In this document: piece after piece, positions 1 to 38,210 of the stretch
Numbering within the stretch: position 1 is the stretch's first letter
Layout of the letters: the number at the start of each line of letters is the position of its first letter
Virus record (IMG/VR): IMGVR_UViG_3300031627_000002
Coordinates: 1 to 43,669 of that record
Direction: 5' to 3' (one strand)
DNA length: 43,669 nucleotides
DNA from: a virus
Taxonomy: Duplodnaviria; Caudoviricetes
The notes under the pieces: generated by a model
Told to the model about the DNA's origin: nothing
Seen by the model: the letters and a program-made list of their open reading frames with translations, nothing else
Databases searched by the model: none
Translations under genes and position numbers: made by a program

Positions 1-1
1 C

Positions 2-490
2 AGTAGCAAAGATCAAGCATGGCGAACACCAGCAGCCCTATACAACGCACTTGATAAAGAATTTGGCTTTACACTTGATGCGGCTGCAAGCCGCAACAAT
101 AAAAAATGTGAAAACTACCTAGGCCCCGATCACCCCAATCCAACCAAGCAAAATAGCTTAAAGGCTCATTGGCAGGGTACGGTATTCTGCAACCCACCAT
201 ACGGTAGAACAGTAAACCAATGGGTACAGCACGCCAAAGAACAAGCCCAGCAAGGCGCAACAGTTGTAATGATAGTAATGGCCTGCACAGATACAAACTG
301 GTGGCACGAACAAGCATGGAAAGCCGCAGAAATACGCCTAGTGCAAGGTCGTGTAAGCTTTAATAGAAGTAATGGCGAAAAAGCAGCAGCAGCACCCAAG
401 GGTAGCGCAATACTTATTTTTAGACCACACGTGCCACACAACGGCTACCCAGAAGGTCCAAGGGTGGTTAGCTGGCCATGCCCTAAATGA
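2..490 (+). CDS. dam: Phage DNA N6-adenine methyltransferase (Dam, T1-like/PF05869 type), 5'-truncated by window edge
   Basis: The frame of ORF 269..490 is open back to base 2. It reads SSKDQAWRTPAALYNALDKEFGFTLDAAAS...VFCNPPYGR...TDTNWW...GRVSF, with the W-x-TP, F-x-LDAAA and NPPY motifs of phage Dam. Confidence 0.9.
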   Translation, partial: SSKDQAWRTPAALYNALDKEFGFTLDAAASRNNKKCENYLGPDHPNPTKQNSLKAHWQGTVFCNPPYGRTVNQWVQHAKEQAQQGATVVMIVMACTDTNWWHEQAWKAAEIRLVQGRVSFNRSNGEKAAAAPKGSAILIFRPHVPHNGYPEGPRVVSWPCPK

Positions 491-509
491 ATAAGCTAAC
501 TACGTAGCG

Positions 510-1418
510 CTAAAGCCAAGAAGTTGGAACGTATTGCCATTCGTAGATCATTGCTTGCTTGATCCCGTACTTGGCTTCTACAGCGTTTAGGAACTCCAAA
601 AAGTCTGGCTTTGTCCACACACCAAAGGCATCCATTATTCCGCAGGCGTTGTGGGTTGTGTAGGGGGAAGCAACGCAAGCAGGGTTGGATAACGCTTCTA
701 CACTGAACATTGGCCATACGTTTGGTTGGCTTAACCATGCTTTGTGGTTTTCTAAATAACTGCCTATCTTTCCGTTTAGTAGATCTTTTGGGTTCCCGTT
801 GTTTTTACAGTATGGCGTGTTGGGGCAACGGCACTTTGGCCCTTTGTCGCCTTTACAGCCACATGCGGCCATTTCGCCTACCCAGTATATTTCGGGGTAA
901 CTTTGGTTGCCTTGGTCGTTTGGCGGTGGCCCTTTGGGGGCGTAGCCGTAGTCTAGTGGAACTGTTGGCCAATACTGCGCCCAAAGCTTTTCTATGTAGC
1001 TTTCGCCTTGCTTACCGTAGTACACGTTTACATTTTCATAATCAAAACCCAAACAAGTGATCTTATTGCTTCCACTGGAATTGTTTAGCTTAGTTATAAA
1101 CTGAAACGCTAGATCCATTGTGTCGTTTGGCTGGAAGGTAGCGGAAGATCCAACCCACGGCCATTTTGGCTCTGTGTCTAGCACTAGTCCTGCTTGGCAG
1201 GTTGCTGGCAATTGATCCAACCAATACTTTTGAAGCCAACCTTGCTTGGCGTAGGTTCCTGCTTTTATGTTTGGGTCCATTAGAATAAAGAACGCACGCT
1301 TTATGTTGTTGTCTTTAATAAACTTTACGTACTGGGCTGCGTATTCTTTAAAGGTTGCTTCGTCTGTTGCTGGCTTTCCAACTATTGCTTCGTGCCACAC
1401 ACCTAATTTCATAGTCAC
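510..1418 (-). CDS. Hypothetical protein (Trp/Cys-rich; possibly glycoside-hydrolase-like barrel)
   Basis: 302-aa ORF, probable ATG start at 1412. GFDYE weakly resembles the GH18 DxE motif; function unsupported beyond that. Confidence 0.65.
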   Translation of the reverse strand: MTMKLGVWHEAIVGKPATDEATFKEYAAQYVKFIKDNNIKRAFFILMDPNIKAGTYAKQGWLQKYWLDQLPATCQAGLVLDTEPKWPWVGSSATFQPNDTMDLAFQFITKLNNSSGSNKITCLGFDYENVNVYYGKQGESYIEKLWAQYWPTVPLDYGYAPKGPPPNDQGNQSYPEIYWVGEMAACGCKGDKGPKCRCPNTPYCKNNGNPKDLLNGKIGSYLENHKAWLSQPNVWPMFSVEALSNPACVASPYTTHNACGIMDAFGVWTKPDFLEFLNAVEAKYGIKQAMIYEWQYVPTSWL

Positions 1419-1585
1419 CTCTGCTACAGACTAGCCTGTGCTGAAATTTTATAAAGAAAAAAAAGCACTACGCATAGGGTGGGAGTTTTTTGAGAAATAT
1501 CCTGCGATGGTAGGTAAACGGCAGTGGCACCAAAACGGCAAAAAGCAAGGGGTGCCCCCTTGCAATTTGGTTTTGGGTTTTGGTT

Positions 1586-1648
1586 TTAGCTAACGCTGGC
1601 AGCGCAAGCTATAAGGGCGTTTAGGGTAGCAAAGTAAAGTAAAAACAT
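1586..1648 (-). CDS. Putative 20-aa hydrophobic micropeptide MFLLYFATLNALIACAASVS
   Basis: Manually translated. Preceded by AAAAGGATCTTACAATG, the same RBS-like string as before ORF 3375..3602 (AAAGGATCTTAAATG). Confidence 0.3.
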   Translation of the reverse strand: MFLLYFATLNALIACAASVS

Positions 1649-1680
1649 TGTAAGATCCTTTTATGGTTTAGGGGTAGGGT

Positions 1681-1705
1681 GCCAGCCCCCACAATAGGGG
1701 CTGGC
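1681..1705 (-). terminator. GC-rich hairpin just downstream of ORF 1715..2281
   Basis: GCCAGCCCC-CACAATA-GGGGCTGGC, a perfect 9-bp stem; no clear U-tract. Confidence 0.5.
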
Positions 1706-1714
1706 GGTTAGGGT

Positions 1715-2281
1715 TTACAGGCTACCGATCAAGGTTGCCAAGTTAGCCTGTATATAGCCAGCGGGATCGGCACTAAACGCCTTAGGATCGGCGGGCGTTA
1801 GCATAACGTGCCTTTGATCCGTGCTGGCATTGTAAAGCTTACCAGTAAAGCCCAAAGCAGTAGCGCTGCGTTGGCAAGTTTGATCCACGCGCCAGCCGTG
1901 CTGGTTATGCAACCAAGTTTTGTAAAGCGCTACCCATGGATCTGCACCTACTACCTGATCGCCTACCTTGTTTTGGTAGCCGCGCAAGATCAACCGATCG
2001 CCGTTAGGCGTTACGCTGCCAGCGGTACCAGCTACCGCAGCTAATAGCGCGGTTGCAAGCTTTACAACGGTATTGCGGTTAGGCATGCGTGCCTTTAGGT
2101 GCCTACCATGGCGGCTACCTGCACCAGCGGGCTGGCGGCTATTGTGCGCGGCTTGCATAACGGCGATCAGATCAACCTGTGCAGCCTGTGCGGCTAACTG
2201 CTGATCGGTAGGTTTAGCGGCTGCCTTTACAGCCTTGTTAGTGGTTTTAGTTTTAGCGGTTTTGGTTTTGGCGTTTGCCAT
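1715..2281 (-). CDS. Hypothetical early protein with Lys/Ala-rich N-terminus; Glu-free paralog of 7711..8277
   Basis: 188-aa ORF with promoter at 2333-2361 and RBS AAGGG. C-terminal TWLHNQHGWRVDQTCQRSA matches TWMKTQHGWKDNMTCGRSA of 7711..8277. Confidence 0.85.
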   Translation of the reverse strand: MANAKTKTAKTKTTNKAVKAAAKPTDQQLAAQAAQVDLIAVMQAAHNSRQPAGAGSRHGRHLKARMPNRNTVVKLATALLAAVAGTAGSVTPNGDRLILRGYQNKVGDQVVGADPWVALYKTWLHNQHGWRVDQTCQRSATALGFTGKLYNASTDQRHVMLTPADPKAFSADPAGYIQANLATLIGSL

Positions 2282-2332
2282 GGTAGTTACCCTTTGGTTT
2301 GCGTTTAGGCGTTAGTGCCTAACTGCCCTACG

Positions 2333-2361
2333 GTTATACAGGCAAACGGTTACGGTTGCAT
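2333..2361 (-). promoter_or_regulatory. Sigma70-like promoter (conserved phage early family)
   Basis: Minus strand ATGCAA-17 bp containing TAAC-TATAAC. Confidence 0.55.
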
Positions 2362-2518
2362 AGTTTTATTTTGGTTTTAGCGGTTTTATTTTGGTGGCAG
2401 GCTTGCAGTGCAGCCTTTTTATTTTTGATCAGCACGGGATCAAACCACCAGATCAGCACGGATCAACGGTGCGATCCTAACCTTATAACGGTTAGCAACA
2501 GTTAGCGATCTATAGGTT

Positions 2519-2618
2519 GCAAGATCGGGCGCTATATATAGGGCAAGATCGGGCGCTATATATATAGGGCGATCAAGGGTAGCGCCTAAACGCTGTACAG
2601 GTAGCAAGATCGGCGCTA
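2519..2618. repeat. Direct repeats GCAAGATCGGGCGCTATATATAGG (2 copies plus a partial third)
   Basis: Copies at 2519-2542, 2543-2569 and partial 2604-2618, inside a GATC cluster. Confidence 0.8.
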
Positions 2619-2805
2619 CGCCCTAACAGGTACCACGGTTAGGGTTAGCAACCGCAAGCCAGCACAAGCCAAACAAGCGCCACTAAGCGGCACACTGCAC
2701 AGGTGTACAGTAGCTAAACGGCTAACCTGTAAAGCGTTAGGTTGGCACGGGAATTGCAGTGTAGCAAGGTGCGTGCCAGATCAAAGATCGTGCCAAGTTT
2801 TTACC

Positions 2806-2940
2806 TGTACACTTGTACAGGTGTACGTTTATACAGGTGTACACTTGTACAGTACTGGATCTTTATACAGGTGTACACTTGTACAGTACTGCAAGCCTGT
2901 GCAGGTGTACGTTTGTACAGTACTGTATGCCTGTACAGTA
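2806..2940. repeat. TGTACA/GTAC palindrome-rich array with a 30-bp direct repeat
   Basis: TTTATACAGGTGTACACTTGTACAGTACTG at 2828-2857 and 2862-2891; many TGTACA and AGTACT palindromes. Confidence 0.85.
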
Positions 2941-2953
2941 TGCCAAAAAGCCA

Positions 2954-3033
2954 TAATGCAAATAGTGCAAATAGTGCAAATAGTGCAAAAGCAATAGTGC
3001 AAATAGTGCAAAAGGTGCAAATAGTGCAAAATA
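2954..3033. repeat. Tandem 9-mer AAATAGTGC array
   Basis: About 7-8 imperfect tandem copies of (A)AATAGTGCA. Confidence 0.85.
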
Positions 3034-3374
3034 AGGTCGTTGTACCGTGAGGTCGCTTTCTATTTTTTTGGGTCGCCCATTTTTGGGGTCGCTGTCCACG
3101 GTCTTTTTCCGCGTGGTCTTTGGTCGCTGTATAAGGTCGCGGTCCACGTTCTTTTTCCGCGGGACGGTCTTTTTCCGCGTGACCTTTTTTGCGGTCTACT
3201 TTTTTGCCACCTAAACCCAAACAAACATGACAAGCGAACGTCCTTATTCCTTGGTCGCTGTCTACCTAAAATGCTAATCTAAAGGTCGCGCTCTTTGTTT
3301 ATAAACAAAAGGGTGACCCTAACGACGCTACCAAAGCCGCTAAGGTCACCCGCACTGTTTGTCAGTGCCGTCCA

Positions 3375-3602
3375 CTACTCGATCCAGTCTACCTTCTGGT
3401 TCTCCGTGGGTTCAACTTCCGCTGCGATCACAGCCGACCCGCTAAACATACTAAGAGCAGCGAGTATAAGGGACGCCATAGAAACCACCAAACGGCGACC
3501 CCGTTGTTGTAGGCGTAGATCGGCAGGGAAGAAGTCTTTGTAAAGGGTAACGGCAAATATTGCCAAAGCAATGGTCACAATGTTTAAGGGTAGGTTGGTC
3601 AT
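3375..3602 (-). CDS. Small hypothetical membrane protein
   Basis: 75 aa with two hydrophobic stretches; RBS AAGGATC; promoter-like sequence at ~3659-3689. Confidence 0.6.
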   Translation of the reverse strand: MTNLPLNIVTIALAIFAVTLYKDFFPADLRLQQRGRRLVVSMASLILAALSMFSGSAVIAAEVEPTENQKVDWIE

Positions 3603-4103
3603 TTAAGATCCTTTAGTGGTTAGTGTTTAGTAGGTTAGCGCCCTTGCTAACCTATATATATAGTAACACAATACAGGTTATAGATGCTACCCATCACCGC
3701 AAGGTAGTAGGAGCAAGACCACACCGCACCAACCATACAGCGGACACATGACGGTCGCGCTCGGCGCCAGCCACACCAAGCCATACCAAGTAAGGACAGC
3801 GACCAACATAGCAACCATACAACATAACCAAGGGTCGGTGTCACCCGCTAAGCAAGCAGGTACTACAGCACAGGGGTCGCTGTCACCCAGGTTCCTCGGA
3901 CGAACACCCCCCCTATTTGTTTTGGGACATTGACTTGTCGAAACCGACAACCCCCCCCCATGACAAAGACCCAAGCCGCCCCTACTGTGGTCGGTGTCAC
4001 CCCCCTCTTAGTCATGGGGGACAGCACCCCCCCTATGAAGTCGCTATCCCCCCCTACTTATAACCAATGACCCCCCCCTATTAGAAGGGGGAAGTCTGCT
4101 ACC

Positions 4104-4502
4104 CTACAGCATGTGCTGTGTAATGCGACCGCTGCATAGCTGTTCTGTGTAACCAGGTCCCTTGGGGTCGGTGTAGGTGTACCATACGCCCTGTGCATTA
4201 CAGACATAAACGTAGTCGGCTTCCATGTTGCTTACCTCGCGACACAAACCTTCGCGGTTTAGCTGCTGCGCTGGACGCCAAAGTTCTTGTGGCATTGGCA
4301 TGACCTTATACCGTTCGCGCATGTGTTGGTCACCCTTACCAACTATAGCGAGCGCCCTTTCGTGGGTGTTGCAAACAAAGCGCAACCATTGCCCAAGTTC
4401 GGCGGGTGTCGCCCAAAAGGCGCAGTACATTGTAGTAAACTGGTTTGGCGCGGTCTGTACCGCAACTATTGCGCTTGTGTATTTTGTGGTGTCCATTGTC
4501 AT
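4104..4502 (-). CDS. Hypothetical phage protein, divergent paralog of 4753..5082
   Basis: Likely start MTMDTT at 4502 after AAGGG and promoter 4553-4581. TMYCAFWATP/ADYVYV align by eye with VIYCHYDGYP/ADFIYV. Confidence 0.7.
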   Translation of the reverse strand: MTMDTTKYTSAIVAVQTAPNQFTTMYCAFWATPAELGQWLRFVCNTHERALAIVGKGDQHMRERYKVMPMPQELWRPAQQLNREGLCREVSNMEADYVYVCNAQGVWYTYTDPKGPGYTEQLCSGRITQHML

Positions 4503-4552
4503 TGTATTGCCCTTAGTGGTTAGTGGTAGGTTGTAGCCCTTGCTACACCTAT

Positions 4553-4581
4553 AAGGTACCACACAACTGGTTAGCATACAA
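4553..4581 (-). promoter_or_regulatory. Sigma70-like promoter (conserved family)
   Basis: TTGTAT-GCTAACCAGTTGTGTGG-TACCTT. Confidence 0.55.
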
Positions 4582-4752
4582 CCACAGCCAAACCTTAGTA
4601 TGACAGTGACCAGCAAGAGGGCGACCCAGTAATAGCTAAACGCAACCATAAGGCGCTGGTCGCTGTCATTCAGATAACAATGGTCGCTGTCACACACAGT
4701 AGCCACAAAGCGACAGCGCGTTCAAGCACTGTCACCTTCTGTTGTGTCTGGC

Positions 4753-5082
4753 TTACTCTAGGTCCATAAAGCGGTGCTTGCGGTACACTGACCAACTTTG
4801 TGTGCTGGGATCAAAGACGTAAATGAAGTCAGCGTAATTCGTTGAGTCACTTATCCTCTTCAGTGTCCGTGCTGGGCTGCCACCGCCTAAAGGAATGGTA
4901 GTTCCATTACTAGCAATGGCCTTGAGGTCACCCCCGTCCATTAGCCGTTGTACGGCTGCGGTAGACCCAAACGAGTCTGCCAGCATCTTGCCAGTGTGCG
5001 ACGGGTAACCGTCGTAGTGGCAATAAATGACCTGGTATTCATTGTTGTTAATTTTGCGTGCTATTAGTGCTGGAGTCCCCAT
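4753..5082 (-). CDS. Conserved phage hypothetical protein (IYCHxDGYP family)
   Basis: Start MGTPALI at 5082. The YCHYDGYPSHTG motif is one I recognise as widespread among phage proteins of unknown function. Confidence 0.8.
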   Translation of the reverse strand: MGTPALIARKINNNEYQVIYCHYDGYPSHTGKMLADSFGSTAAVQRLMDGGDLKAIASNGTTIPLGGGSPARTLKRISDSTNYADFIYVFDPSTQSWSVYRKHRFMDLE

Positions 5083-5360
5083 TCGCTTGCCCTTTGGTGG
5101 TTGGTAGTTTGTAGCGGCTGCTACACTAATAATATAACACATTATGTAGTATTGAACTATATGTCCACTAAACATAGTGGGAAGGCGACCTCAAGGGTTG
5201 GGCGCGACAACGACCCGCACGCAAACCATATATATTAGCTGCACGAGGTCGCTGTCCCCTAGCTAAACTTACTTATAATAAGGGGGTCGCCTTCTTCCCG
5301 AGCGGATTGGTCGCTGTCTTTAGCACTGGGCAAGGTCTTGTGTCCCAGCACTGTCGCTTT

Positions 5361-5624
5361 CTACATAGGCTCTACCACTTCGCCCATCGCCCCTTTCGCG
5401 CAGTCCTCACATATCGTTATGTCTGGGCTTCTTGTTATTCCCGCACAGGTTGTGCAGAAGCAGGACTCCACCTTGTTCAGGCTGTAAGGGACATTGTGAC
5501 CCCAGCCAGCATAGAACCAGTGAAACACATCTTCAGCATCACTTTGTTCTGGTATCGCCTTCTCAATCTTCTTCTTGGTTCTTGGGCACGTAAAACCTAA
5601 GACCATTGGGTAGTCGCCTTCCAC
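5361..5624 (-). CDS. Hypothetical protein with CxxC pairs
   Basis: 87-aa ORF; CTTC and CEDC; AGGAGG upstream. Confidence 0.6.
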   Translation of the reverse strand: MEGDYPMVLGFTCPRTKKKIEKAIPEQSDAEDVFHWFYAGWGHNVPYSLNKVESCFCTTCAGITRSPDITICEDCAKGAMGEVVEPM

Positions 5625-5633
5625 TCTTCCTCC

Positions 5634-5723
5634 TTACCTGTCAAACAGGTCTGTTGTTAGTGTCCAGTAGCCGAGTGCTGCTAGTCCGATCAGCCCCCAT
5701 GACATTAGTATCGTTGTAATCAT
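5634..5723 (-). CDS. Small membrane peptide (29 aa)
   Basis: MITTILMSWGLIGLAALGYW...; RBS GGAGGG upstream of ATG at 5723. Confidence 0.5.
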   Translation of the reverse strand: MITTILMSWGLIGLAALGYWTLTTDLFDR

Positions 5724-5727
5724 TGAT

Positions 5728-5889
5728 TCACCCTCCTTGCTTACAAAGCTTGCGCGACTTCTGCCGCAGTGACTTCTCAATCGCCCTCTTATGCTTCCGC
5801 GCTTTCGCAGCGCTTCGGCCTCCCCCGCCTCTATGTGGTTGCCCATCAACGTCCTTACGGGACTTAAAAAGTTTCGCTTTACCTTTCAT
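5728..5889 (-). CDS. Small highly basic protein (53 aa), not in ORF track
   Basis: Manual translation MKGKAKLFKSRKDVDGQPHRGGGGRSAAKARKHKRAIEKSLRQKSRKLCKQGG*; RBS GGAGGG; fills the gap between neighbours exactly. Confidence 0.6.
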   Translation of the reverse strand: MKGKAKLFKSRKDVDGQPHRGGGGRSAAKARKHKRAIEKSLRQKSRKLCKQGG

Positions 5890-5892
5890 TGT

Positions 5893-6240
5893 CTAACCCT
5901 CCTGGTTCTTGTTCCAGCCAATTCGCCATGCTGTATATTCGTTGTCTGAGATCGTCCCTGCATCATGCAGGTCTGCCATCACTTCTGGGCTTGCTGTGTT
6001 GGTGTCAAGGTGTTCACGCCAGTCGTACCATCCGTATGCTCCCAAGTAGTCCTCTTCGCTTGCCTGCAATACATAGTTGCGTAAGACCTCGGCATCCATT
6101 GCCTCTTCTGCATCGCCTTCAATTAGCAGTCCTGCTTCCACTTGATCGCGCCTTGCAAAGTCTTCTTCCTCTTGCTCTTGCCACTCCCTGTATTCGGTAG
6201 GTGACATAAGCATTGGATCTTTAGGTTCCATGTCTAACAT
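5893..6240 (-). CDS. Small very acidic protein
   Basis: Start MLDMEPK at 6240, downstream of promoter 6294-6322; strongly D/E-rich. Confidence 0.75.
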   Translation of the reverse strand: MLDMEPKDPMLMSPTEYREWQEQEEEDFARRDQVEAGLLIEGDAEEAMDAEVLRNYVLQASEEDYLGAYGWYDWREHLDTNTASPEVMADLHDAGTISDNEYTAWRIGWNKNQEG

Positions 6241-6293
6241 TTCTATTTCCCTTTGGTGGTTTGCTAAGGTACTTGATCGCGCCTTGCCTATAT

Positions 6294-6322
6294 ATAATAC
6301 GCCACAGGTTATTAAGATGCAA
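6294..6322 (-). promoter_or_regulatory. Sigma70-like promoter (conserved family)
   Basis: TTGCAT-CTTAATAACCTGTGGCG-TATTAT, 17-bp spacer. Confidence 0.75.
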
Positions 6323-7000
6323 TAGTCTTTATGTTTTAGTATGACCAGCCGAAAAAGCGAAACGCAGGACGGCGACCCCGCAAGTGCTACCCCCACACGG
6401 GGAAGACACCAGACAGCGACCAACCATAATAGTAGTATACAAACAGGTCGCTGTCACCTATCTAGCAGATCGCGGTCAGCAGGTCGCTGTCCACGCCAGA
6501 AGTTGACTTTCAACGGTCACTTTAGTCAGGTCGCGGTCGTCAGGTCGCCTTCTGTGTGTCAGGGGTCGCCTTCCCCCAAAGAGGTCGCCATCCTTTTTCC
6601 CAAGAGTCTTTTTTTTGGTCGCCCTCCTTTTTCCCAAGAGTCGCCTTCTACTTTTTTGGCGTGGTCGCTGTCTTACCTTTTTTGCCTAGGGTCTATTTTT
6701 TTTGGAGTTTTCCGAATGGAAACTTGGTCGCAGTCTAACTTTTTTTAGCGGTTCAGGTCGCTGTCCTTTCTCCTACTTTTCCAAAAACCCTCCCTTTATA
6801 GACACAGACCACAGACAGCGACCACGAATGGAATGAAAGCGACCACAAAGGGTACACCTCCAAAGACCTAGGTCGGCTTCCCGCAGGCTCGCAGTCGTGC
6901 TTTTTCTGAGTGGAGGGTAAAGACCTCACGCCCGATGGTTGGCAAATCGCCTTTTTTACCCGACCTTCATTCACGAAGACGAGTGTATGTCTAAACCTTC

Positions 7001-7039
7001 GTTATTTGGACTATTTTCATTATTTAGACTATTTGGACT
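7001..7039. repeat. Tandem 9-mer array (minus strand AAATAGTCC/T)
   Basis: TTATTTGGACTATTTTCATTATTTAGACTATTTGGACT; an inverted relative of the 2954-3033 array. Confidence 0.6.
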
Positions 7040-7626
7040 TTCCCTATCTTTCATTTACGCGAGGGTCGTTTGCGCTCCCTGTTTTGCGCGAGAGGTCTTC
7101 CCTGTTGCCTTTAGTGTTCTTCACCCATTAGATAGCGGTCGTTATCGCTTACATTCCTTTATACTTTACCGCCTCAGATAGCTTCTGACACCGTCTACGT
7201 ACAACATTGGGGGCATAGGGTACCCACCGCATACAGACAGCCTTAGATTGGCATCAAAGCGCCATTAGAACGAGTCTACCCACAAGTTGCATTCATGGTA
7301 CCCATACTCAGTCTGCGCAAGACAATAGGATAAAGACTATACGGTCTACCCGACCATGTAGTTCCCAGTGCGTATACAGGGGGTCGTGTTCACCCAACCG
7401 TATCTGAAGGAAGCAGTGCCTATGTCTGTCGTATAGGTAGTCTTTTCTAAACTGAGTATGGATAGTTCTTGTAACCGACAAGCCCCCCCCTATTGGAAAA
7501 GCGTAGTCTATATGAGTATGCGTAGACCAACCCCCCCCTACATGAGTAAGAGCATATACATATGGTCGTTTTCTATACCCCCCCTACTTAGACACCCTTT
7601 GTCTTTAGTAGTTTCATTTCCATAAT

Positions 7627-7664
7627 AAAAAGAAAGCCCCGCTCACGGTAAAGTGAACGAGGCT
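7627..7664 (-). terminator. Rho-independent terminator downstream of 7711..8277
   Basis: Minus strand AGCCTCGTTCAC-TTTACC-GTGAGCGGGGCT (G:U pairs) followed by TTCTTTTT. Confidence 0.75.
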
Positions 7665-7710
7665 GGTGAGGGGTATTAGACCTACTACCATTCAAGCTGT
7701 GCTTGTCTGG

Positions 7711-8277
7711 CTATTCGGGGAAACTCACTCCTTCTGGTGCAAGCAGCACTCGTCGTTGCTTCGGATCTTTATTCGTCACCAACTTATAGTTCGGGTATCC
7801 GTTAGCAATCGCGGATCGCCCGCATGTCATGTTATCTTTCCACCCGTGCTGTGTCTTCATCCAAGTTTCAGCCAACGTCGCACCCATAATGTCCTCCTGG
7901 GTAAGTTCCACAACGCCTTCCTTACTCACGCGTCCTGCCGCGATTGCAGTTTCAATAGCTACTTGGAACTTGTTGATGGTTGCGCTTCGTGCCATACGCC
8001 CGTCACGCCTCTTGATCTCACGTACAAACCGAGCAGTATCCTCACCGTCAATGCGGTTCACTTCCAGTTTCGCTGCCTTGGCTTCCGCTTCCACCATATC
8101 AGCAAGGTTCAACGGTACTGTCACGCTCTGCGTTTGCTGCAACGTGCGGAAGAATAAGTTCGCCGCCGTAGCGTTCGCTGCCGCTTGTGCCTTAGTTGAC
8201 TTCTTCTGTGCCAGTGGAAGGCTGGTTGCCTTCTTACCTGAACTCTTTACTGCTGCCTTCTTTTGTGCTTTTGCCAT
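7711..8277 (-). CDS. Hypothetical early protein, Lys/Ala-rich N-terminus (possible DNA binding); paralog of 1715..2281
   Basis: 188 aa; RBS GTAGGAGG; promoter 8344-8372; downstream terminator. Confidence 0.85.
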   Translation of the reverse strand: MAKAQKKAAVKSSGKKATSLPLAQKKSTKAQAAANATAANLFFRTLQQTQSVTVPLNLADMVEAEAKAAKLEVNRIDGEDTARFVREIKRRDGRMARSATINKFQVAIETAIAAGRVSKEGVVELTQEDIMGATLAETWMKTQHGWKDNMTCGRSAIANGYPNYKLVTNKDPKQRRVLLAPEGVSFPE

Positions 8278-8343
8278 GTTGTCCTCCTACAGACTATGTG
8301 TTGGCTAAATGACGGAAAAACCTAACGCCCTCCATCTGTATAT

Positions 8344-8410
8344 ATAATACCACCAAGGTTACAAGGATGCAACCCTTCTAGCGATCTTGGTGCGACATGC
8401 GTATGTCGCT
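8344..8410 (-). promoter_or_regulatory. Promoter plus upstream palindromic operator-like cassette
   Basis: TTGCAT-17-TATTAT with extended -10 TG; 8380-8410 matches 8793-8823 at 29/31. Confidence 0.8.
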
Positions 8411-8417
8411 GTTTGGT

Positions 8418-8708
8418 TCATGCATCACCTCCAAAGGATTCGCCCAGTTCTAATACAAAAAGCGGGTCGTACTCCAGACATGCTTCCTGCTGTGCCTTGT
8501 CTTTCACGATTCCAAACTTAGTGTCGCCTGATAGCGTGCATCTTGTGCAGACCCACATGAACTTCCCTTTTCGGGAAATCTCTACTGCTGCTGGACCTGC
8601 GGAGAGTTCGCATGGGCAACCCCCACGGCATTCGCATCGCTTCAAGTAAGCCTCTGGAAAGATGGCTTGGATCTCTTCTTCTTCTGTGGTTGGTGTAATC
8701 GTTGACAT
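8418..8708 (-). CDS. Hypothetical Cys-rich (Zn-binding) protein
   Basis: Start MSTITP at 8708; CECRGGCPC and CTRC. Confidence 0.7.
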   Translation of the reverse strand: MSTITPTTEEEEIQAIFPEAYLKRCECRGGCPCELSAGPAAVEISRKGKFMWVCTRCTLSGDTKFGIVKDKAQQEACLEYDPLFVLELGESFGGDA

Positions 8709-8756
8709 TTTGAACTCCTGTTGCTGGGTTGGTGTTGTTACCGTTTTCATGTATAT

Positions 8757-8823
8757 ATAATACCACAAAGGTTACAGGATTGAAATATGTCCAGCGATCT
8801 TGGTGCGACATGCCTACGTCGCT
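8757..8823 (-). promoter_or_regulatory. Second copy of promoter/operator cassette
   Basis: TTTCAA-TCCTGTAACCTTTGTGG-TATTAT plus AGCGATCTTGGTGCGACATGCCTACGTCGCT. Confidence 0.75.
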
Positions 8824-9101
8824 CATAGACCCCACACCTCCATTCCAAGATCCATCACCTTCAAACCAGGACGGTTGAGCCAAGATAAGTCCTCGTCTGG
8901 ATTGTGGGTCGTTATCCTGCCTGCGTCTAAGGTAGCCTCTGCTACCATCTCTTCCTCACTTTCATACAGTTCAGCATGTCCAACAATGCCGTACCAGTCG
9001 CCCGAGATAGTTTCCCAGGTCACCGCCATTGCTTCCATCAACTGGTCAACCTGAACTACAGTTATCTCATGCTTTTCCGCAATCCTTAGCTTTGTCATCA
9101 C
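8823..9101 (-). CDS. Hypothetical protein
   Basis: 92 aa, coupled to the upstream gene through GGAGGTGAGTGATG. Confidence 0.75.
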   Translation of the reverse strand: MMTKLRIAEKHEITVVQVDQLMEAMAVTWETISGDWYGIVGHAELYESEEEMVAEATLDAGRITTHNPDEDLSWLNRPGLKVMDLGMEVWGL

Positions 9102-19293: not shown

Positions 19294-19881
19294 TCATCCG
19301 TCAAATCTCCTGTTCCAGTTAAAGGCGTGACTGTGCGGATCGCACCTCCACTCATCTGTTCCGTCGTACTCGTGGCTAACTAGATTCAGCACCCACGAAT
19401 CTTCTTGACCCAGTGCTTTCCACCCATGTACTACTCCTGGCGGAATAATAATTGTCTCTGGGTTCTTTTCTGAATCCAGAATCGTTATTTGGTAATCAAA
19501 ATCAAGCTTATCGCTAAAAAATGCCTCCCTCGCATCAAATGTCACAAGCATAACTTTTCCTCTTACACAGAAAAATCTATCCGTCTGCTTTAGGTGACAA
19601 TGCCAACCTTTTACGACACCTGGGTTCGTTACACTTATATAAGCTTGGGATATCGGGCTATTAGTGGAACAATAACTCCAAGAGTTGCGCCAGATCTCAA
19701 CGAGTGACCCTCTAGGATCAACCAACCATTTGAGTTCGTGCTTCTCATCATTTTTTCCACTTCTTTTTGGTACCCTATGGTTTGTAATTGGGACAGTGCG
19801 TTCATTCTTGTACCCAAGACTTACTAAATAGTCTTTGAAGGCTTTGCTTGTCGTATCCAATAACTCTTTATCTATTTTCAT
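19294..19881 (-). CDS. rmlC: dTDP-4-dehydrorhamnose 3,5-epimerase-like cupin
   Basis: DPRGSLVE, GVVKGWH, CVRGKV...DAR and IPPGVVHGW are RmlC signature segments. Confidence 0.85.
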   Translation of the reverse strand: MKIDKELLDTTSKAFKDYLVSLGYKNERTVPITNHRVPKRSGKNDEKHELKWLVDPRGSLVEIWRNSWSYCSTNSPISQAYISVTNPGVVKGWHCHLKQTDRFFCVRGKVMLVTFDAREAFFSDKLDFDYQITILDSEKNPETIIIPPGVVHGWKALGQEDSWVLNLVSHEYDGTDEWRCDPHSHAFNWNRRFDG

Positions 19882-33010: not shown

Positions 33011-34606
33011 TTGAATGATTTAATTGCAAATGGATTGTATCACCCTTGCGTTACGGCATCAAGTAAAGCAAGCAGTATTGACACAGAGTACCAATTTGCT
33101 TTTAATTCGATCAAAAGATCTGTCTGCACGAGAAGTGCCGTATCTAATGCAGGGAAAGCCCTACTTTGGGTAATGGGGGAATTGAAAGCCCATCAAATAC
33201 AAGAAGTTAAGTCTGGGTATTGGTATTTAGAACTTTGCCCTACTTATTTGTCATCAATACCATCTGTCACTAGATGGGCGGCTGGTAACGCATGGAAGCA
33301 AATCAAAAAAGATTTAGGCTGGACTGAGGTTTCCTTATCTAGTGCTGCCTCAATGGGGGCAAAGATAAGGAAACTATCGTTTGGCCAAAAGTGGGGAAGG
33401 CATATACTTCTCACCACTAAAAATAAGTGCTTTCTGTTAGAGGTAGCCCGCAGGTTCAGGCACGCTGGTTTTTTTGAACGGTTCAGTGGGCCTAAGAGCG
33501 CCTCAAAGGTATTTATTGGCACGGTGCCAATACCCGCCAAGTTGCGAGCATTACAAGGGCATATAGGGAAGCGCACGGCTGCTGCTAAGTGCCCTAATAC
33601 CAAAGCCCATAAACACGCAGATAAGTCACCATCTCTAATACTGTGGCGCACTGGTAATGAGCATAAAAGTGGAGCTAAATGTTTTACCTGCGAGAAAACA
33701 TATGCTGTGGAGTATTCTGACAGCAAAGCCAGATTGTTTACACCACATAAAACGACATTTGTTGGCACCCAAACTACTGTAACTACTAAAAAACCCAGAC
33801 ACCAGCACAATAATAACCTACTAGCTAAAGGATCTAATCCTATAGGTGGTTTAGTCTCTACAGTTAAAGCAAACAATAGCTATCTTAGTGCTAAGCTTTT
33901 TAGCTATATTACAGACAATACAGGGTACACAACCAGAAGCATTGGGCATAAACTCCAGAATGAGCCAATACAAATACTAAAATGGTCTGAAGCTCGCAGC
34001 AAAGGGGCTAAATCAACAGATATAGCCCTTACAATTCAGCGCCTTTATAGTAAGGATGTAAGCCAAGGGCAAAAGCACATACTCCCAACCTCTCTATGCT
34101 CTGTCTCGCAAATGAAGCCTACTGAATGGGAGGAAGCATCGTTTGGTATTAGGCCATCTAAGTGGGGTGCTTTTAGGCAATCGTGGGTATTGTTTGATCT
34201 AGATAATATAGCGGGCTTGGGGGAAGATCTATCTCCAATAATCAATAGTATTGAGTCCAATATTGGATCTAATAGTGAGTGTAGTGGGCGCAGCGCCATA
34301 GTCCAAACTGGCCCATCTGGTATTCAAATTTGGGTGGAGCTTAGGGAGAATAGATTCAATCCAAACGCTTGGTTTGCAAACAAGGATGTTAGGGTTTGGT
34401 ATTCGCACCTAGGCGCGAAGTTGCTAAATAGTTTTCACGAAATTGGGTGTATCGGTGGAAAAGTAGACATGGCTTGCTTTGCTGCGGGAAGGTTTGGCAG
34501 AAGGCCAGGGTGGAGACTACTGCCTACTGGAAATGTATTCAGGTCTAGATTAGTTAGTACCCAATGCGAGAGAGTTAGGTTCGCCCGTAATCATCCTCGA
34601 TCCTGA
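33011..34606 (+). CDS. Large hypothetical protein; Zn finger plus possible AEP/Prim-Pol-like C-terminal domain
   Basis: 531 aa; CPN..H...CFTC; VLFDLD and QTGPSGIQIWV resemble AEP motifs I and II. Confidence 0.6.
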   Translation: MNDLIANGLYHPCVTASSKASSIDTEYQFAFNSIKRSVCTRSAVSNAGKALLWVMGELKAHQIQEVKSGYWYLELCPTYLSSIPSVTRWAAGNAWKQIKKDLGWTEVSLSSAASMGAKIRKLSFGQKWGRHILLTTKNKCFLLEVARRFRHAGFFERFSGPKSASKVFIGTVPIPAKLRALQGHIGKRTAAAKCPNTKAHKHADKSPSLILWRTGNEHKSGAKCFTCEKTYAVEYSDSKARLFTPHKTTFVGTQTTVTTKKPRHQHNNNLLAKGSNPIGGLVSTVKANNSYLSAKLFSYITDNTGYTTRSIGHKLQNEPIQILKWSEARSKGAKSTDIALTIQRLYSKDVSQGQKHILPTSLCSVSQMKPTEWEEASFGIRPSKWGAFRQSWVLFDLDNIAGLGEDLSPIINSIESNIGSNSECSGRSAIVQTGPSGIQIWVELRENRFNPNAWFANKDVRVWYSHLGAKLLNSFHEIGCIGGKVDMACFAAGRFGRRPGWRLLPTGNVFRSRLVSTQCERVRFARNHPRS

Positions 34607-34922
34607 TTATATCACCATCGTCAAATGTGCTTACTTCAGCAACAATAACAAAATCACCTTCATCGGCAGCACCCATTCTATGAGGGGTTCCAGGGGGTAT
34701 ATGGGCGTACATTCCTGGGCTTAATTCATAAGTCACATTGTTTTTCTCGAAAATCATTGTTCCGTACAAGACTATTACTGTTTCTTCCTTGTATTGGTGG
34801 AATTGTAATGACATTCTTTGGCCACTTTCTATACGCATAATCTTCCCAGTATATTTCCCAGGAACGTTTGCCCAAATTAGTGTTGAACCCCAAGGGGAAT
34901 GTTTAGTATTACCCTCACTCAT
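34575..34922 (-). CDS. Cupin, mannose-6-phosphate isomerase (type II C-terminal)-like
   Basis: SPWG, GQRMSLQFHQYKEE, IPPGTPHR, EVST and DIIRIEDDYGR. Confidence 0.85.
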   Translation of the reverse strand: MSEGNTKHSPWGSTLIWANVPGKYTGKIMRIESGQRMSLQFHQYKEETVIVLYGTMIFEKNNVTYELSPGMYAHIPPGTPHRMGAADEGDFVIVAEVSTFDDGDIIRIEDDYGRT

Positions 34923-35952
34923 TAGCCGCTGTCTTTTCTATTGATGGCCAAAGCTTGCGTTCAAGTTTGTTCTGTTGAGGCTTTGCATGTACAGATTTAA
35001 TTACTTCTAAATCTTTAAGATTTGGGCTGACTAATTTAGGTAAAAGACCAGCCCTTGTACCACTTCCTGCATTACACCGATCACAAGGGCTAAATCCACG
35101 TTCTTTCTTCTGTAGGAACCTACGTGCAGCAGTAAACTCTGAACCCCACCAAATTTGCTTTAGGCTTCTTTCGTTAGCATTTCCGCAAGTATATTCATGA
35201 CCCCAATCCATACAGCAGATGTTTACGTTACCATTATAGCAAACGGTAATCTCCCTAAATGGCTGAGTACACGTTCTACTGTACGGCTGTTCAGGTATTG
35301 GTTGGTCAGCAGCATTTCCAGCGTGGTTCATCAATGTACGAGAACCACTCTCCCCAGACCTGATCCCTATGTCATCCATTACTATTATTAAGCCCGTCTT
35401 TTTACGGTGATAATTATAGTAAGGGGAAATCCCAGCAGGAATACAATCATCATAAAAATCCATTACTTCAAATCGAGTACATGACTTAGCAAGCTGCTGA
35501 AGCTTGGATCTTTCTGGCTCATATGTATCTAATATTATTATATCAATACCAGCGTCAAAGGCACGGACGGCGTAACCCTCCACTGCATTTTCATGTTTCT
35601 TTGATCGCATCCAATTGCGACCATTAGTTGTTAGTTGGAATTGTGTGTGTGGTAACTGTTCCCTAAAAATACCAACGATTTCTTCCCAATCTGGGTTTAG
35701 AGTAGGCTCGCCGTGCATGGCAAACTCAACCCTAGCCTTTGGGCAAAGTTCCTTTAATTGTAAAGCTACCTTTTTAGCCAAAGGGATGCTCATATAATGG
35801 TACGGCATCCCAGCTTTAGATCTAATTCCATTTAAACCACAGAATGAACAAAGCTTATTACAACCTTCTGTAAGCTCTAATTGTACAGACCATGGCGCAT
35901 GTAGACCCTCTCCCTTACCTTTGCCTATTTTCTTTTTTTTCAAAAACCCCAT
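34915..35952 (-). CDS. Radical SAM protein with SPASM/twitch domain
   Basis: CNKLCSFC, HGEPTL, TTNG; C-terminal CTQPF...GNVNICCMD...C..C. Confidence 0.88.
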   Translation of the reverse strand: MGFLKKKKIGKGKGEGLHAPWSVQLELTEGCNKLCSFCGLNGIRSKAGMPYHYMSIPLAKKVALQLKELCPKARVEFAMHGEPTLNPDWEEIVGIFREQLPHTQFQLTTNGRNWMRSKKHENAVEGYAVRAFDAGIDIIILDTYEPERSKLQQLAKSCTRFEVMDFYDDCIPAGISPYYNYHRKKTGLIIVMDDIGIRSGESGSRTLMNHAGNAADQPIPEQPYSRTCTQPFREITVCYNGNVNICCMDWGHEYTCGNANERSLKQIWWGSEFTAARRFLQKKERGFSPCDRCNAGSGTRAGLLPKLVSPNLKDLEVIKSVHAKPQQNKLERKLWPSIEKTAANE

Positions 35953-36665
35953 TAGATCGCCAACAAGATTTCATCTTTACGCTTAGGGTTGTCCTTCAAC
36001 ATTCCAGGCCACTTATCTTTTAATTGTTTGATTGTAGCTTGCTCTAGATCACTTGTTCTGTAGTCGCAAGCACCACCCTTGTTTGTACGATGAGCGAATG
36101 TAGCCAACACTGCATTGCACCTAGCAATAGAACCGTACTTCATTAAGTGTTGGATTGTATAATCATAGTCTTCTTTCAATCTTAGATCTTCATCGAACCG
36201 CAAACTTGTCGGCTTGACTGCTATAAAATCGCCCACAACGAAAGCACTTGTATGTACGGGCTTGTTTGGATTGAAAAAGAAAGCATTAGCAGTAGGGGCA
36301 ACACCAACCATTCGAGAACCAGTGCTGTCCAATGCTTTAAACATTAAGCGAACTGCATCATCAAGTGTAGCCTCATGTTTTTCAGCTTTATTTGTCGCAA
36401 TTTCTAATTTACGCAAGTCATCGCTCAATTCAATAGCAGGCAGATCCATTGCAAAAGAGTCATCTAAAATAGCATTACGGCTACGGCATAATCCACCAGA
36501 TTCAATAACTTTGGTGGCACCCATCATTTCGTATTGCTTTGCTTCGCCAGCCCCTACGTACCAAGTCAAAGGCCCGCACATCTTCTCCATTTTGGTTACA
36601 TTTTTAGCTCTCTTATGAGAGATCACGCCAATGAATACTTTCACACCGCCAATACGCCTAATCAT
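35952..36665 (-). CDS. GT-A fold glycosyltransferase (TET-associated/GREB1-like)
   Basis: ISHKRA, SRNAI, LSDD, KEDYDY and KGG pattern; directly downstream of a TET/JBP gene. Confidence 0.72.
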   Translation of the reverse strand: MIRRIGGVKVFIGVISHKRAKNVTKMEKMCGPLTWYVGAGEAKQYEMMGATKVIESGGLCRSRNAILDDSFAMDLPAIELSDDLRKLEIATNKAEKHEATLDDAVRLMFKALDSTGSRMVGVAPTANAFFFNPNKPVHTSAFVVGDFIAVKPTSLRFDEDLRLKEDYDYTIQHLMKYGSIARCNAVLATFAHRTNKGGACDYRTSDLEQATIKQLKDKWPGMLKDNPKRKDEILLAI

Positions 36666-37551
36666 TATTTTCTCCAGGTTCTAACAAGCCTCTGCTTTTA
36701 GCTTTTTCCAACTCGCCCAAAGGTGAATCACACCCAAGGATTCCTTCTCTATAATAATGGACAACTGTAATGCGTTCCCAGTCAACCTTTTCTTCACCCA
36801 CTGTAGCGTAAGGGGGTGTGTTCCCGTGCCAGACAACTGGATTGAAAACAACCACATCCCCATGCTTCATATCTATTGCAAACCTATACTCTGGAATGAC
36901 CAACTCAAAACCACTATATTCCCCTTTACGGAAACAAAGCATACAACCCATCCCATCCTTCAAATCTCCACCATCTTGGTGGTAAGCAGAAGGGACACAG
37001 TTATTGATTGTTAATGTTGTAAAGGGTGTCCCTGGGATTACCCAAGCTTGGTGTGTTTTTTCAACATAGGCCATTTGGTCTTTGTATTTATTTGGGGCAA
37101 CATCTTTGAATACTTTTGCTACCTCTCTCAAACAGGGCTGGATGGCATCCCACTTTTCAGGGTGGTGTTGTAAGAAGGCTGTTTGGCGGCAAAAAGGGTG
37201 GCGACCACCTTGCGCTTCAAAAAACCCAGCCACACAACTAGAAACATTACTAGTCCTCGTTTGGCGCGAAACAGTACCATCTGGACGAACATTGGGAACG
37301 CGAGACTCTCCAGCATATACGCCACGGTTATCGCTTTTAAAGCGCTTCATGTAATGGTAAGTTTCGTATGACTGATCTAAAGCTTCTTTAGATATAGCGC
37401 CCCTTCGGTACCCTATAATAAGTGTCCCATCAGGTGCATATACATCGCAAGATTCAGTCAGCACAAAAGAATAATGTTCTTTAGGGGGGTGCTTCCCTTT
37501 CCAGGGGCGTACTTGTTCTTCTGGAATCTTAGATCGGACAGCTATTCTCAT
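36658..37551 (-). CDS. TET/JBP-family 2OG-Fe(II) dioxygenase (DNA base oxidation)
   Basis: TPFTTLTIN, HQDGGD (HxD), WHGNTP and RITVVHYYRE, the hallmark arrangement of phage TET/JBP. Confidence 0.88.
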   Translation of the reverse strand: MRIAVRSKIPEEQVRPWKGKHPPKEHYSFVLTESCDVYAPDGTLIIGYRRGAISKEALDQSYETYHYMKRFKSDNRGVYAGESRVPNVRPDGTVSRQTRTSNVSSCVAGFFEAQGGRHPFCRQTAFLQHHPEKWDAIQPCLREVAKVFKDVAPNKYKDQMAYVEKTHQAWVIPGTPFTTLTINNCVPSAYHQDGGDLKDGMGCMLCFRKGEYSGFELVIPEYRFAIDMKHGDVVVFNPVVWHGNTPPYATVGEEKVDWERITVVHYYREGILGCDSPLGELEKAKSRGLLEPGENND

Positions 37552-38210
37552 TTAATATCACCCGCTGCCTCTTGAATTGTTTTGTATACAGTGTCGGTAA
37601 TATTATCTGTATCGTGCTTTTTAGAGAGGGTGTTTACCCACATTTGGAAAATTGGCGCTGTTTCTTCATTAAGGAAGAGCTGAACCATCCTAACACTGCT
37701 ATTCGGCATATCTTTAGGTTGTGTCCCATCTGGTATTTCTGGGCCAGTTTGCCCAACATACCCTTCTTCTGGAGGTAACATACTAAGGCTTTCTAGATCT
37801 GTCTCAAACTGAGAAAGCAACCCCTCAAGTTCTTCACCACTAAAACCTAGTGAGGTTGCATCAAATTCATCACCAAGGGCAGACAGGGCTTGAATATGGC
37901 TTGACAATACTTGTTCATCCCAACCAGCCAATTCGCCACTACGGTTTAGGGAGATTGATAGCTTACGTGCATCCTCATCAGAGACATCCAGTAAAACCAC
38001 CTGCACATGGGTATTCCCAAGCTTTTTCATTACACTAAGGCGACCATTTCCACCAATCACTTTCATGCTACTGGCTTGGACGACAAGTGGTTCAACCTGA
38101 CCATGGGCTTCCAAGGAAGCACTAATCGCCGCTAGGTTCTTCTCATCATGGACTCTTGGGTTTGCATCATCAGGGACAAGTTTCTTGATAGCAACATTTT
38201 GTACATTCAT
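37548..38210 (-). CDS. ParB/Srx N-terminal-domain protein
   Basis: NPRVH, SLEAHGQVEPLVV, IGGNGRL and LNR..GWD. Confidence 0.82.
   Translation of the reverse strand: MNVQNVAIKKLVPDDANPRVHDEKNLAAISASLEAHGQVEPLVVQASSMKVIGGNGRLSVMKKLGNTHVQVVLLDVSDEDARKLSISLNRSGELAGWDEQVLSSHIQALSALGDEFDATSLGFSGEELEGLLSQFETDLESLSMLPPEEGYVGQTGPEIPDGTQPKDMPNSSVRMVQLFLNEETAPIFQMWVNTLSKKHDTDNITDTVYKTIQEAAGDIK

Follow-up and report, generated by a model that had tools for sequence, protein, structure and literature searches.

The 43,669-nucleotide stretch of tailed phage DNA analysed here (IMG/VR record IMGVR_UViG_3300031627_000002, Caudoviricetes; hereafter the window) carries a 1.5-kb island, at positions 1508..3036, in which the dinucleotides TC and GA occur only as part of the word GATC, with a single exception. 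The window is a fragment of a phage genome and is matched in seawater metagenomes. A 71-kb relative that is 94% complete (G001) holds the head and tail genes missing from the window, and the identical island protein is found on a contig of 79.8 kb, from which we estimate a genome size of about 80 kb.

We describe the anatomy of the island in the minus-strand direction. Its first edge is the point at which a TC-rich GGTCGC(TGTC) repeat array (3037..7500) stops; 33 of the 39 copies of GGTCGC in the window fall within 2-8 kb. Inside this edge lies a non-coding part (2420..3036) made of TGTACA-type repeats and 9-base GTGCAAATA repeats, with a cluster of 13 GATC sites at 2427-2858. The GTGCAAATA repeats at 2960-3015 are also matched by short contigs of other organisms or phages in two runs (X4 and X7), some of them at a depth above 100. 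The -10-like element TGTATAAC (2333..2340, minus strand), a putative promoter, lies 52 bases upstream of a gene for a 188-aa protein (1715..2281, minus strand); the element is also present in the relatives G004 and L160, and a consensus promoter scan did not pick it up. The gene is followed directly by a GC-rich hairpin visible in the sequence (1681..1705), then by an ORF for 20 hydrophobic amino acids (1586..1648) that is kept in G004, L160, L161 and L163, and then by an intrinsic-terminator-like site (1545..1563), all on the minus strand. The island spans a putative promoter-to-terminator unit, and its second edge falls about 40 bases past the terminator-like site. Upstream of the promoter-like site, the same rule is kept over approximately 700 bases.

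Immediately outside the second edge is a conserved element of the form CCC..TGCGYAG..T-run (1452..1506, minus strand), which is present in eight sequences (G000, G001, G004, G005, G034, G046, L160 and L218) and which we regard as a candidate terminase or terminus signal. Beyond it come a Dam gene, small genes and then terL. The Dam-family N6-adenine methyltransferase (2..490, plus strand; PF05869, E = 1e-34, 119.6 bits against a cut-off of 28.1) is truncated at its 5' end by the contig start, has a predicted GATC specificity and lies about 1 kb from the island edge, as the initial annotation of this DNA had noted. Between the island and this gene there is a 302-aa ORF (510-1418, minus strand) with no family match, which is missing in G001, G004 and G005 and is partly skipped by contigs of two other runs. 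The partly depleted zone next to the island carries late genes. A search for 18-base boundary repeats returned 36 loci, none with a gap above 222 bases or a match to the island gene.

The sequence bounded by a GA at 1506 and a TC at 3037 contains 26 GATC and one other GA/TC, at position 2751 in GGGAATT, in agreement with the hand count of the initial annotation. Its rough expectation of 190 GA plus TC also holds: the base composition of the island predicts 190.6, and when its mononucleotides are shuffled 2000 times, non-GATC GA/TC number 178.9±10.3, with a minimum of 147. In the rest of the window the longest GA/TC gap is 103 bases and TC is near normal (odds ratio 0.92). The words AATC, CATC and GATA are all absent from the island (10.6, 14.8 and 10.5 expected, respectively), showing that the exempt word is the 4-mer GATC and not ATC or GAT. 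The rule applies to both strands, and to coding and non-coding DNA alike, as had been claimed. The further claim that the rule relaxes outward stands for one side only. Both edges are sharp, and on the 3037 side the TC-rich array begins immediately; on the opposite (Dam/terL) side TC/GA is at about half its level and recovers over about 8-10 kb. In G001 the non-GATC TC/GA per kb climb from the island as 35, 50, 48, 67, 74, 65, 83 and 93. The genes from Dam to terL have coding-strand TC at 0.09-0.47 of the synonymous expectation, and the junctions between codons show the effect on both strands (T|C, 0.07 vs 0.27 in the control; G|A, 0.04 vs 0.17). GAG/CTC are indeed scarce over 1-5000, at 0-6 per 500 bases compared with mostly 10-20 deeper in the window. 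GATC is enriched in Dam-bearing contigs (observed/expected 1.28-1.61), which is consistent with the predicted GATC methylation; the same ratio is 0.0 in the TET phage contigs G014, G015 and G019, and 0.13 in G007.

The initial annotation had proposed searching related phages for the same island, and they do carry it. The rule is common to G004/G005, L159, L160, L161 and L162, with no violation over 1,483 bases in G004/G005 (76% nucleotide identity), over 1,440 bases in L160 (71% identity) and over at least 1,382 bases in L161 (47% identity, 62% G+C). G004 differs by 337 substitutions that produce no violation, compared with a mean of 99 and a minimum of 81 under random placement; the 396 substitutions of L160 and the 599 of L161 likewise produce none, against means of 111 and 141. 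The GATC sites themselves turn over, with 19, 14 and 7 of the 26 held in common with G004, L160 and L161, respectively. Both island edges are kept in G004 and L160, and L161 keeps the array-side edge, its contig stopping inside the island. Among seven metagenome loci besides that of the window itself, four follow the rule and three do not. The island rule is real, conserved and very strongly selected.

The amino acid sequence of the 188-aa protein bears the same imprint. It has a basic N-terminus rich in Lys, Thr and Ala, it contains no Glu, and all nine of its Asp precede Gln, Leu, Arg or Pro and can hence be written as GAT-C. Glu is absent in nine of ten family proteins, including that of the window, and nine of ten can be encoded without violation only if GATC is permitted, compared with none of 500 shuffles. 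A paralogue of this gene that lies beyond the island (7711..8277, minus strand; hhalign probability 98.8%), at a distance of 5.4 kb, serves as an internal control: with 12 Glu and 60 non-GATC GA/TC it is ordinary, and the rule therefore belongs to the place and not to the protein. Two of the three metagenome loci without the rule, L164 and L165, are not counted as orthologues, since visual comparison places them with P0134, a protein 69% identical to the paralogue of the window; L163 is the only true orthologue among the three. The 188-aa protein has no Pfam or PHROG match, no match in cultured phages or species genomes, and no usable Atlas match. Foldseek finds nothing with its model (pLDDT 66), and the best structural Z, 4.4 to winged-helix-like chains, is a weak match of a low-confidence model. 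In P0136 and P0137 a distant form of the island-protein domain is fused behind a region resembling an HExxH metallopeptidase (motif seen by eye).

At the other end of the window lies a group of minus-strand genes that we predict from their domains to form a thymine-hypermodification system. A ParB-like protein (37548..38210; PF02195), the predicted activator, abuts a TET/JBP Fe(II)/2-oxoglutarate dioxygenase (36658..37551; PF12851, E = 7e-25, 87.6 bits against a cut-off of 34.9), a predicted thymine hydroxylase whose HxD..H..R residues (H191, D193, H242 and R260) are invariant among 27 aligned sequences. The two genes also abut in G001, G002, G003, G006 and G007. Next come a TET-associated glycosyltransferase (35952..36665; phrog_842, and PF20691 with E = 5e-6, just below the curated cut-off) and a radical SAM/SPASM protein with a cupin (34575..35952), which may be tailoring enzymes. 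A dTDP-sugar epimerase-like protein encoded elsewhere (19294..19881, minus strand) could supply the sugar donor. In G006, whose TET protein is 52% identical, a P-loop kinase and an amino acid:DNA transferase, both thymine-hypermodification genes, lie beside TET. In G001 (L008:3735-5671) and G003, unlike the window, the dioxygenase and glycosyltransferase genes are separated by two extra genes, one encoding another ParB-like protein and the other a protein of 420 aa that contains a CxxxCxxC motif. A C5-methyltransferase was found in none of 30 contigs, with the control gene found in 9 of 14 genomes (the window being a fragment and G001 94% complete). DpdA, FolE, QueC and QueD are absent from G000, G001, G003, G005, G006 and G007 in phmmer and hmmsearch searches, which do find deazaguanine genes in G043 and G045, and Pfam scans likewise lack them. 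With neither a C5-methyltransferase nor deazaguanine genes, thymine is the likely target.

Enzymes of this kind have been described. According to PMC13229309, such dioxygenases oxidise T after replication and show preferences at the dinucleotide level; one of them, 5mYOX97 of clade C2, prefers NTC, with ~35-80% oxidation compared with <3% at most NTA/NTG. Compared by eye with the Dataset S11 sequences of that paper, the dioxygenase of the window looks like the ParB-dependent clade C1, and its locus resembles the C1 loci presented there in having TET/JBP beside ParB, no C5-methyltransferase, and downstream tailoring genes. A TC specificity of the window enzyme is our prediction. For phage CAjan, PMC7544227 reports a mutual antagonism between Dam methylation and hypermodification.

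Other members of the lineage carry other bans at the same place, as seen from a terL search that gave 27 loci, of which 18 were scanned, with five contigs analysed whole. G046, a complete genome whose terL protein is 63% identical, has at this locus a 3,066-base island that is rich in TC and that ends near the conserved edge element shared with the window; CC doublets number 7 against 161 expected, and GATCC 17 against 4.6. In this island (L246:12860-14927 and L243:1-1075) CC/GG occur only as GATCC or in runs of at least three C. The genes of G046 include a ParB-N6/N4-methyltransferase, Mom and another 2OG oxygenase, and a tblastn search gave no TET match. In G045 (terL 48%) isolated G is nearly absent from one strand (2 vs 184 expected; the other strand has 187 vs 241), and it is this cleared strand that serves as template for the island gene. 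G045 encodes DpdA (E = 1e-25), a guanine-modifying enzyme, as well as QueD, and it is the sole case in which the banned base matches the enzyme class independently of the TC argument. GATC clusters lie at both ends of its island (L251:13750-16450). The island genes of G045 and G046 have no detectable homology to the 188-aa gene, and that of G006 shows a weak likeness to it (E = 2e-4, probability 47%). This phage lineage thus shows no fewer than three distinct motif bans at a single locus. The gene that follows ParB is also swapped across the lineage, being TET in some members and a deazaguanine cluster in G043, where QueE-FolE-QueD-QueC-DpdA follow ParB and a second DpdA lies beside terL (L247:11119-15175 and L250:11311-12132).

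The position of the island relative to the terminase suggests where it lies in the genome. The terminase matches phrog_675 (E = 1e-72), and so does its counterpart in EAb13. In the annotation of EAb13 a terminal repeat of 2,177 bases is located 4.1-6.3 kb upstream of terL, Lumi has a 2,298-base repeat 3.5-5.8 kb upstream, and the island lies 4,511-5,994 bases upstream of terL in G005. From this class of terminase and this shared position, the island probably equals, or lies within, a long terminal repeat, and contig depth, given as one figure per contig, is compatible with a single as well as a doubled copy. The earlier suggestion of a terminal region thereby gains indirect support by analogy.

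We consider it very probable that the island is kept, in some form, free of the phage's own modification. We infer this link, which is well supported, from the ParB/TET/glycosyltransferase cluster, the promoter-to-terminator span of the island and the occurrence of other bans with other genes; all three favour the hypothesis of the initial annotation that the phage hypermodifies its DNA and that this segment must stay readable by host RNA polymerase. The version in which purging TC/GA spares the first operon so that host RNA polymerase can read it has, in our judgement, a somewhat better than even chance of being right, and we prefer it because one edge is at a terminator and because the clean strand of G045 is the template strand. 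Bulky adducts on thymine would hinder RNA polymerase, as in the biology of base J. Once the DNA is replicated, a ParB-activated TET/JBP enzyme would convert the T of TC into 5-hydroxymethyluracil, to which the glycosyltransferase would attach a sugar. Dam would methylate GATC first, and the N6-methyladenine (m6A) 5' of and opposite the T would block the dioxygenase. GATC would thus be the only safe spelling of TC/GA, and hence the only route to code Asp. If a long direct terminal repeat contains or borders the island, the island operon would be the first that host RNA polymerase has to transcribe from fully modified DNA of the virion. Adducts would hinder this transcription, so that TC/GA would be banned outright in the operon and less strictly over the adjoining ~6 kb. 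For the lineage as a whole, we think it probable that these 75-80-kb phages purge the motif of their own enzyme from a genome end, with methylated GATC as a licensed exception; on this view TC is banned with TET/JBP, isolated G with DpdA and CC/GG with a further enzyme, even at the price of dropped amino acids.

Several observations weigh against this interpretation. The only clade C1 member tested for specificity weakly prefers NTG/NTA, according to PMC13229309, and none of the G046 enzymes is known to act on CC/GG. The islands of G045 and G046 are likewise enriched in GATC, whose clusters there suggest an additional positive role, as at the P1 pac site. G006 obeys the TC rule only partly (37 vs 195 over 2,008 bases), with no non-permitted TC/GA in 530 non-coding bases (37.5 expected); it has no Dam match and no GATC in the TC-poor zone, a weak control given that, at a five-fold reduction of TC, only about one is expected. 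Transcription alone poorly explains the ~700 upstream bases and the depletion in late genes. L163, a true orthologue (41%) with the same locus architecture, lacks the rule, and the family protein P0129 is incompatible with it. As to the terminus, the best cultured terminase matches (EAb13, Lumi and SPO1-like phages) reach only 23-32% identity (23-29% for the phages with terminal repeats), and the terminase also has a match to the Pfam family of lambda gpA, as would be compatible with cos ends. Known or predicted modification also occurs where no island is seen: G043, a complete genome with two DpdA and the full pathway, has no kb-scale island, the known GA modifiers CAjan and iggy have none (longest gaps 81 and 171), and a TC island is present in 0 of 17 distant TET contigs (34-42% identity, ten of them near complete). 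Kb-scale islands are likewise absent in P12024L, HTVC112P and Altadena, and in EAb13, Lumi and SP10 bases 1-25,000, with no motif ban in the terminal repeats of EAb13 and Lumi. The island therefore seems to be characteristic of this lineage of phages and not of modification in general. Beside its TC-poor island, G006 has a 2-kb repeat array (L098:1554-3490) in which TC lies nearly on one strand only, and this array and that of the window both contain TGTCCAC.

Among the alternatives, the one that survives best, and that we still regard as unlikely, retains the self-modification but gives another reason for the ban, namely that the island is the terminal repeat itself, kept bare for transactions on DNA such as duplication at packaging, binding and cutting by terminase, or joining by exonuclease and annealing. 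This would account better for the rule-abiding non-coding repeats upstream and for the two sharp edges, which are seen in G004 and L160. The conserved element abutting one edge in the eight sequences, including the differently ruled G046, also speaks for it, as do the size and position of the island, which fit the repeats of EAb13 and Lumi, and the exonuclease and Sak4-like annealase that the window encodes. The one-strand rule of G045 would also suit DNA synthesis on a single template. However, the whole modified genome needs to be replicated anyway, and no 1.5-kb repeat would include the gradient of depletion that extends over the following 6-10 kb.

This gradient is better explained if the bare segment enters the cell first, unseen by modification-dependent nucleases or glycosylases until an island protein or peptide neutralises them, because the depletion decays with distance as in progressive entry. 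According to PMC10644984, T5-like phages are restricted only via sites in the first-transferred repeat. We find this explanation distinctly doubtful, since the one-strand rule of G045 leaves modifiable G on the opposite strand and the weak fold matches of the island protein (best Z 4.4) include no inhibitor-like fold.

Attack from the host side appears quite improbable to us. Under this explanation unmodified TC/GA would be attacked by a deaminase acting on TC, by a toxin of the DarT type or by restriction at many sites, and the island would be the only segment that the phage is unable to protect; the initial annotation had raised evasion of such defences as its other hypothesis. CTAG (0-2) and TTAA (0-3) are indeed low in the islands of three close relatives, against a Markov expectation of about 8-12, and the genome-wide absence of CCGG shows restriction pressure. 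But CTAG and TTAA are already halved genome-wide, GGCC/CCGG avoidance is not shared by L160 and L161, and the flanking of CTAG, TTAA and GGCC sites in the genome bodies by TC/GA shows no consistent excess over controls (for CTAG, 1.56 vs 1.30 in G001 and 1.52 vs 1.54 in G003). The near-normal TC in the rest of the window argues in the same direction, an attack at the dinucleotide level would strike the host's own DNA, which carries the same dinucleotide, and the banned motif varies with the gene set of the phage.

It is hardly credible that the modified base is the G of GA, as a 7-deazaguanine of the type in iggy and CAjan, instead of the T of TC: a strict GA motif is known (PMC10484667) and the relatives G043 and G045 have DpdA beside ParB, but no deazaguanine genes were found in the six genomes searched. 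An artefact, low complexity or local mutation bias can be dismissed although the island is partly repetitive, because the rule holds in a non-repetitive gene and shapes its amino acids, is seen again in independent assemblies at identities as low as 47% while sparing exactly GATC, and lies on a single contig, from the metagenome run that may be the source, that covers 1-9000 without differences, a diverged copy being covered by a contig of a separate study.

The interpretation of the island as DNA spared from the phage's own modification can be compared with several known systems. In vertebrate CpG islands, a promoter region is kept free of a genome-wide dinucleotide mark; these islands are rich in targets and protected by proteins, unlike the phage island, which would be protected by lacking the target. 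The pac site of P1 is reportedly regulated by Dam, cutting by terminase requiring methylated GATC repeats, with a GATC cluster near the packaging genes, a phage adenine methyltransferase and headful packaging. The window resembles it in its GATC cluster and phage Dam gene, and we know of no dinucleotide ban at that site. The dPreQ0 phages iggy (GA) and CAjan (GA, GGC) also modify the GA/TC pair after replication; unlike the phage studied here, they modify G via DpdA, and they have no kb-scale island.

Closer in layout is the first-step-transfer repeat of T5 and BF23, which, as presented in PMC10644984, is a long terminal repeat with the first-expressed genes, costly sequences and a repeat-rich non-coding neighbour. 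The DNA of T5 is unmodified there, and its costly words are host restriction sites with at least 5-6 specified bases. In the window, in contrast, a dinucleotide is banned with an exemption for GATC, and the motif follows the phage's own genes; restriction-site avoidance of the T5 type does not describe a ban that spans all TC/GA contexts except GATC, and palindrome avoidance here is weak and differs between relatives. The consulted portions of PMC13229309 and its supporting information describe enzymes, with no motif-free genome region and nothing on the effect of Dam methylation on 5mYOX enzymes. We found no description of such an island rule in the searchable full-text literature, which omits most subscription papers. 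The enzymes are new representatives of a known kind, and the island is without a precedent that we could find, the T5 first-step-transfer repeat being the nearest.

If the interpretation is true, base hypermodification carries a cost that the phage pays in sequence, and the island locates the step that does not tolerate modified DNA, with G045 showing which strand must stay clean. It bears on how host enzymes first read fully modified phage DNA, and on why post-replicative modification is motif-specific, a question that PMC13229309 leaves open. The banned motif would read out the base modification of an uncultured phage, its specificity and its genome terminus. The interpretation predicts a ParB-dependent T-dioxygenase that is specific for TpC and inhibited by m6A, a DpdA in G045 with isolated G as its substrate, a CC/GG modifier in G046, and in L163 either a different dioxygenase or none of this kind. 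Scanning metagenomes for motif-free islands may therefore serve to find DNA-modifying enzymes, their specificities and genome termini.

Two further patterns of word avoidance were observed. CCGG does not occur in the window (58 expected), is also at zero in G001, G002, G004 and G005, and is common in G003 and L161; its absence points to a CCGG restriction system in the host of this sub-lineage. Two distant TET phages contain CpG-free stretches, of 1.8 kb in G015 (L117:5256-7082) and 2.0 kb in G024 (L137:10498-12460), where ~24-25 CpG per kb are expected. The stretch in G015 lies over tail-accessory genes, and these CpG-free stretches may be imported modules.

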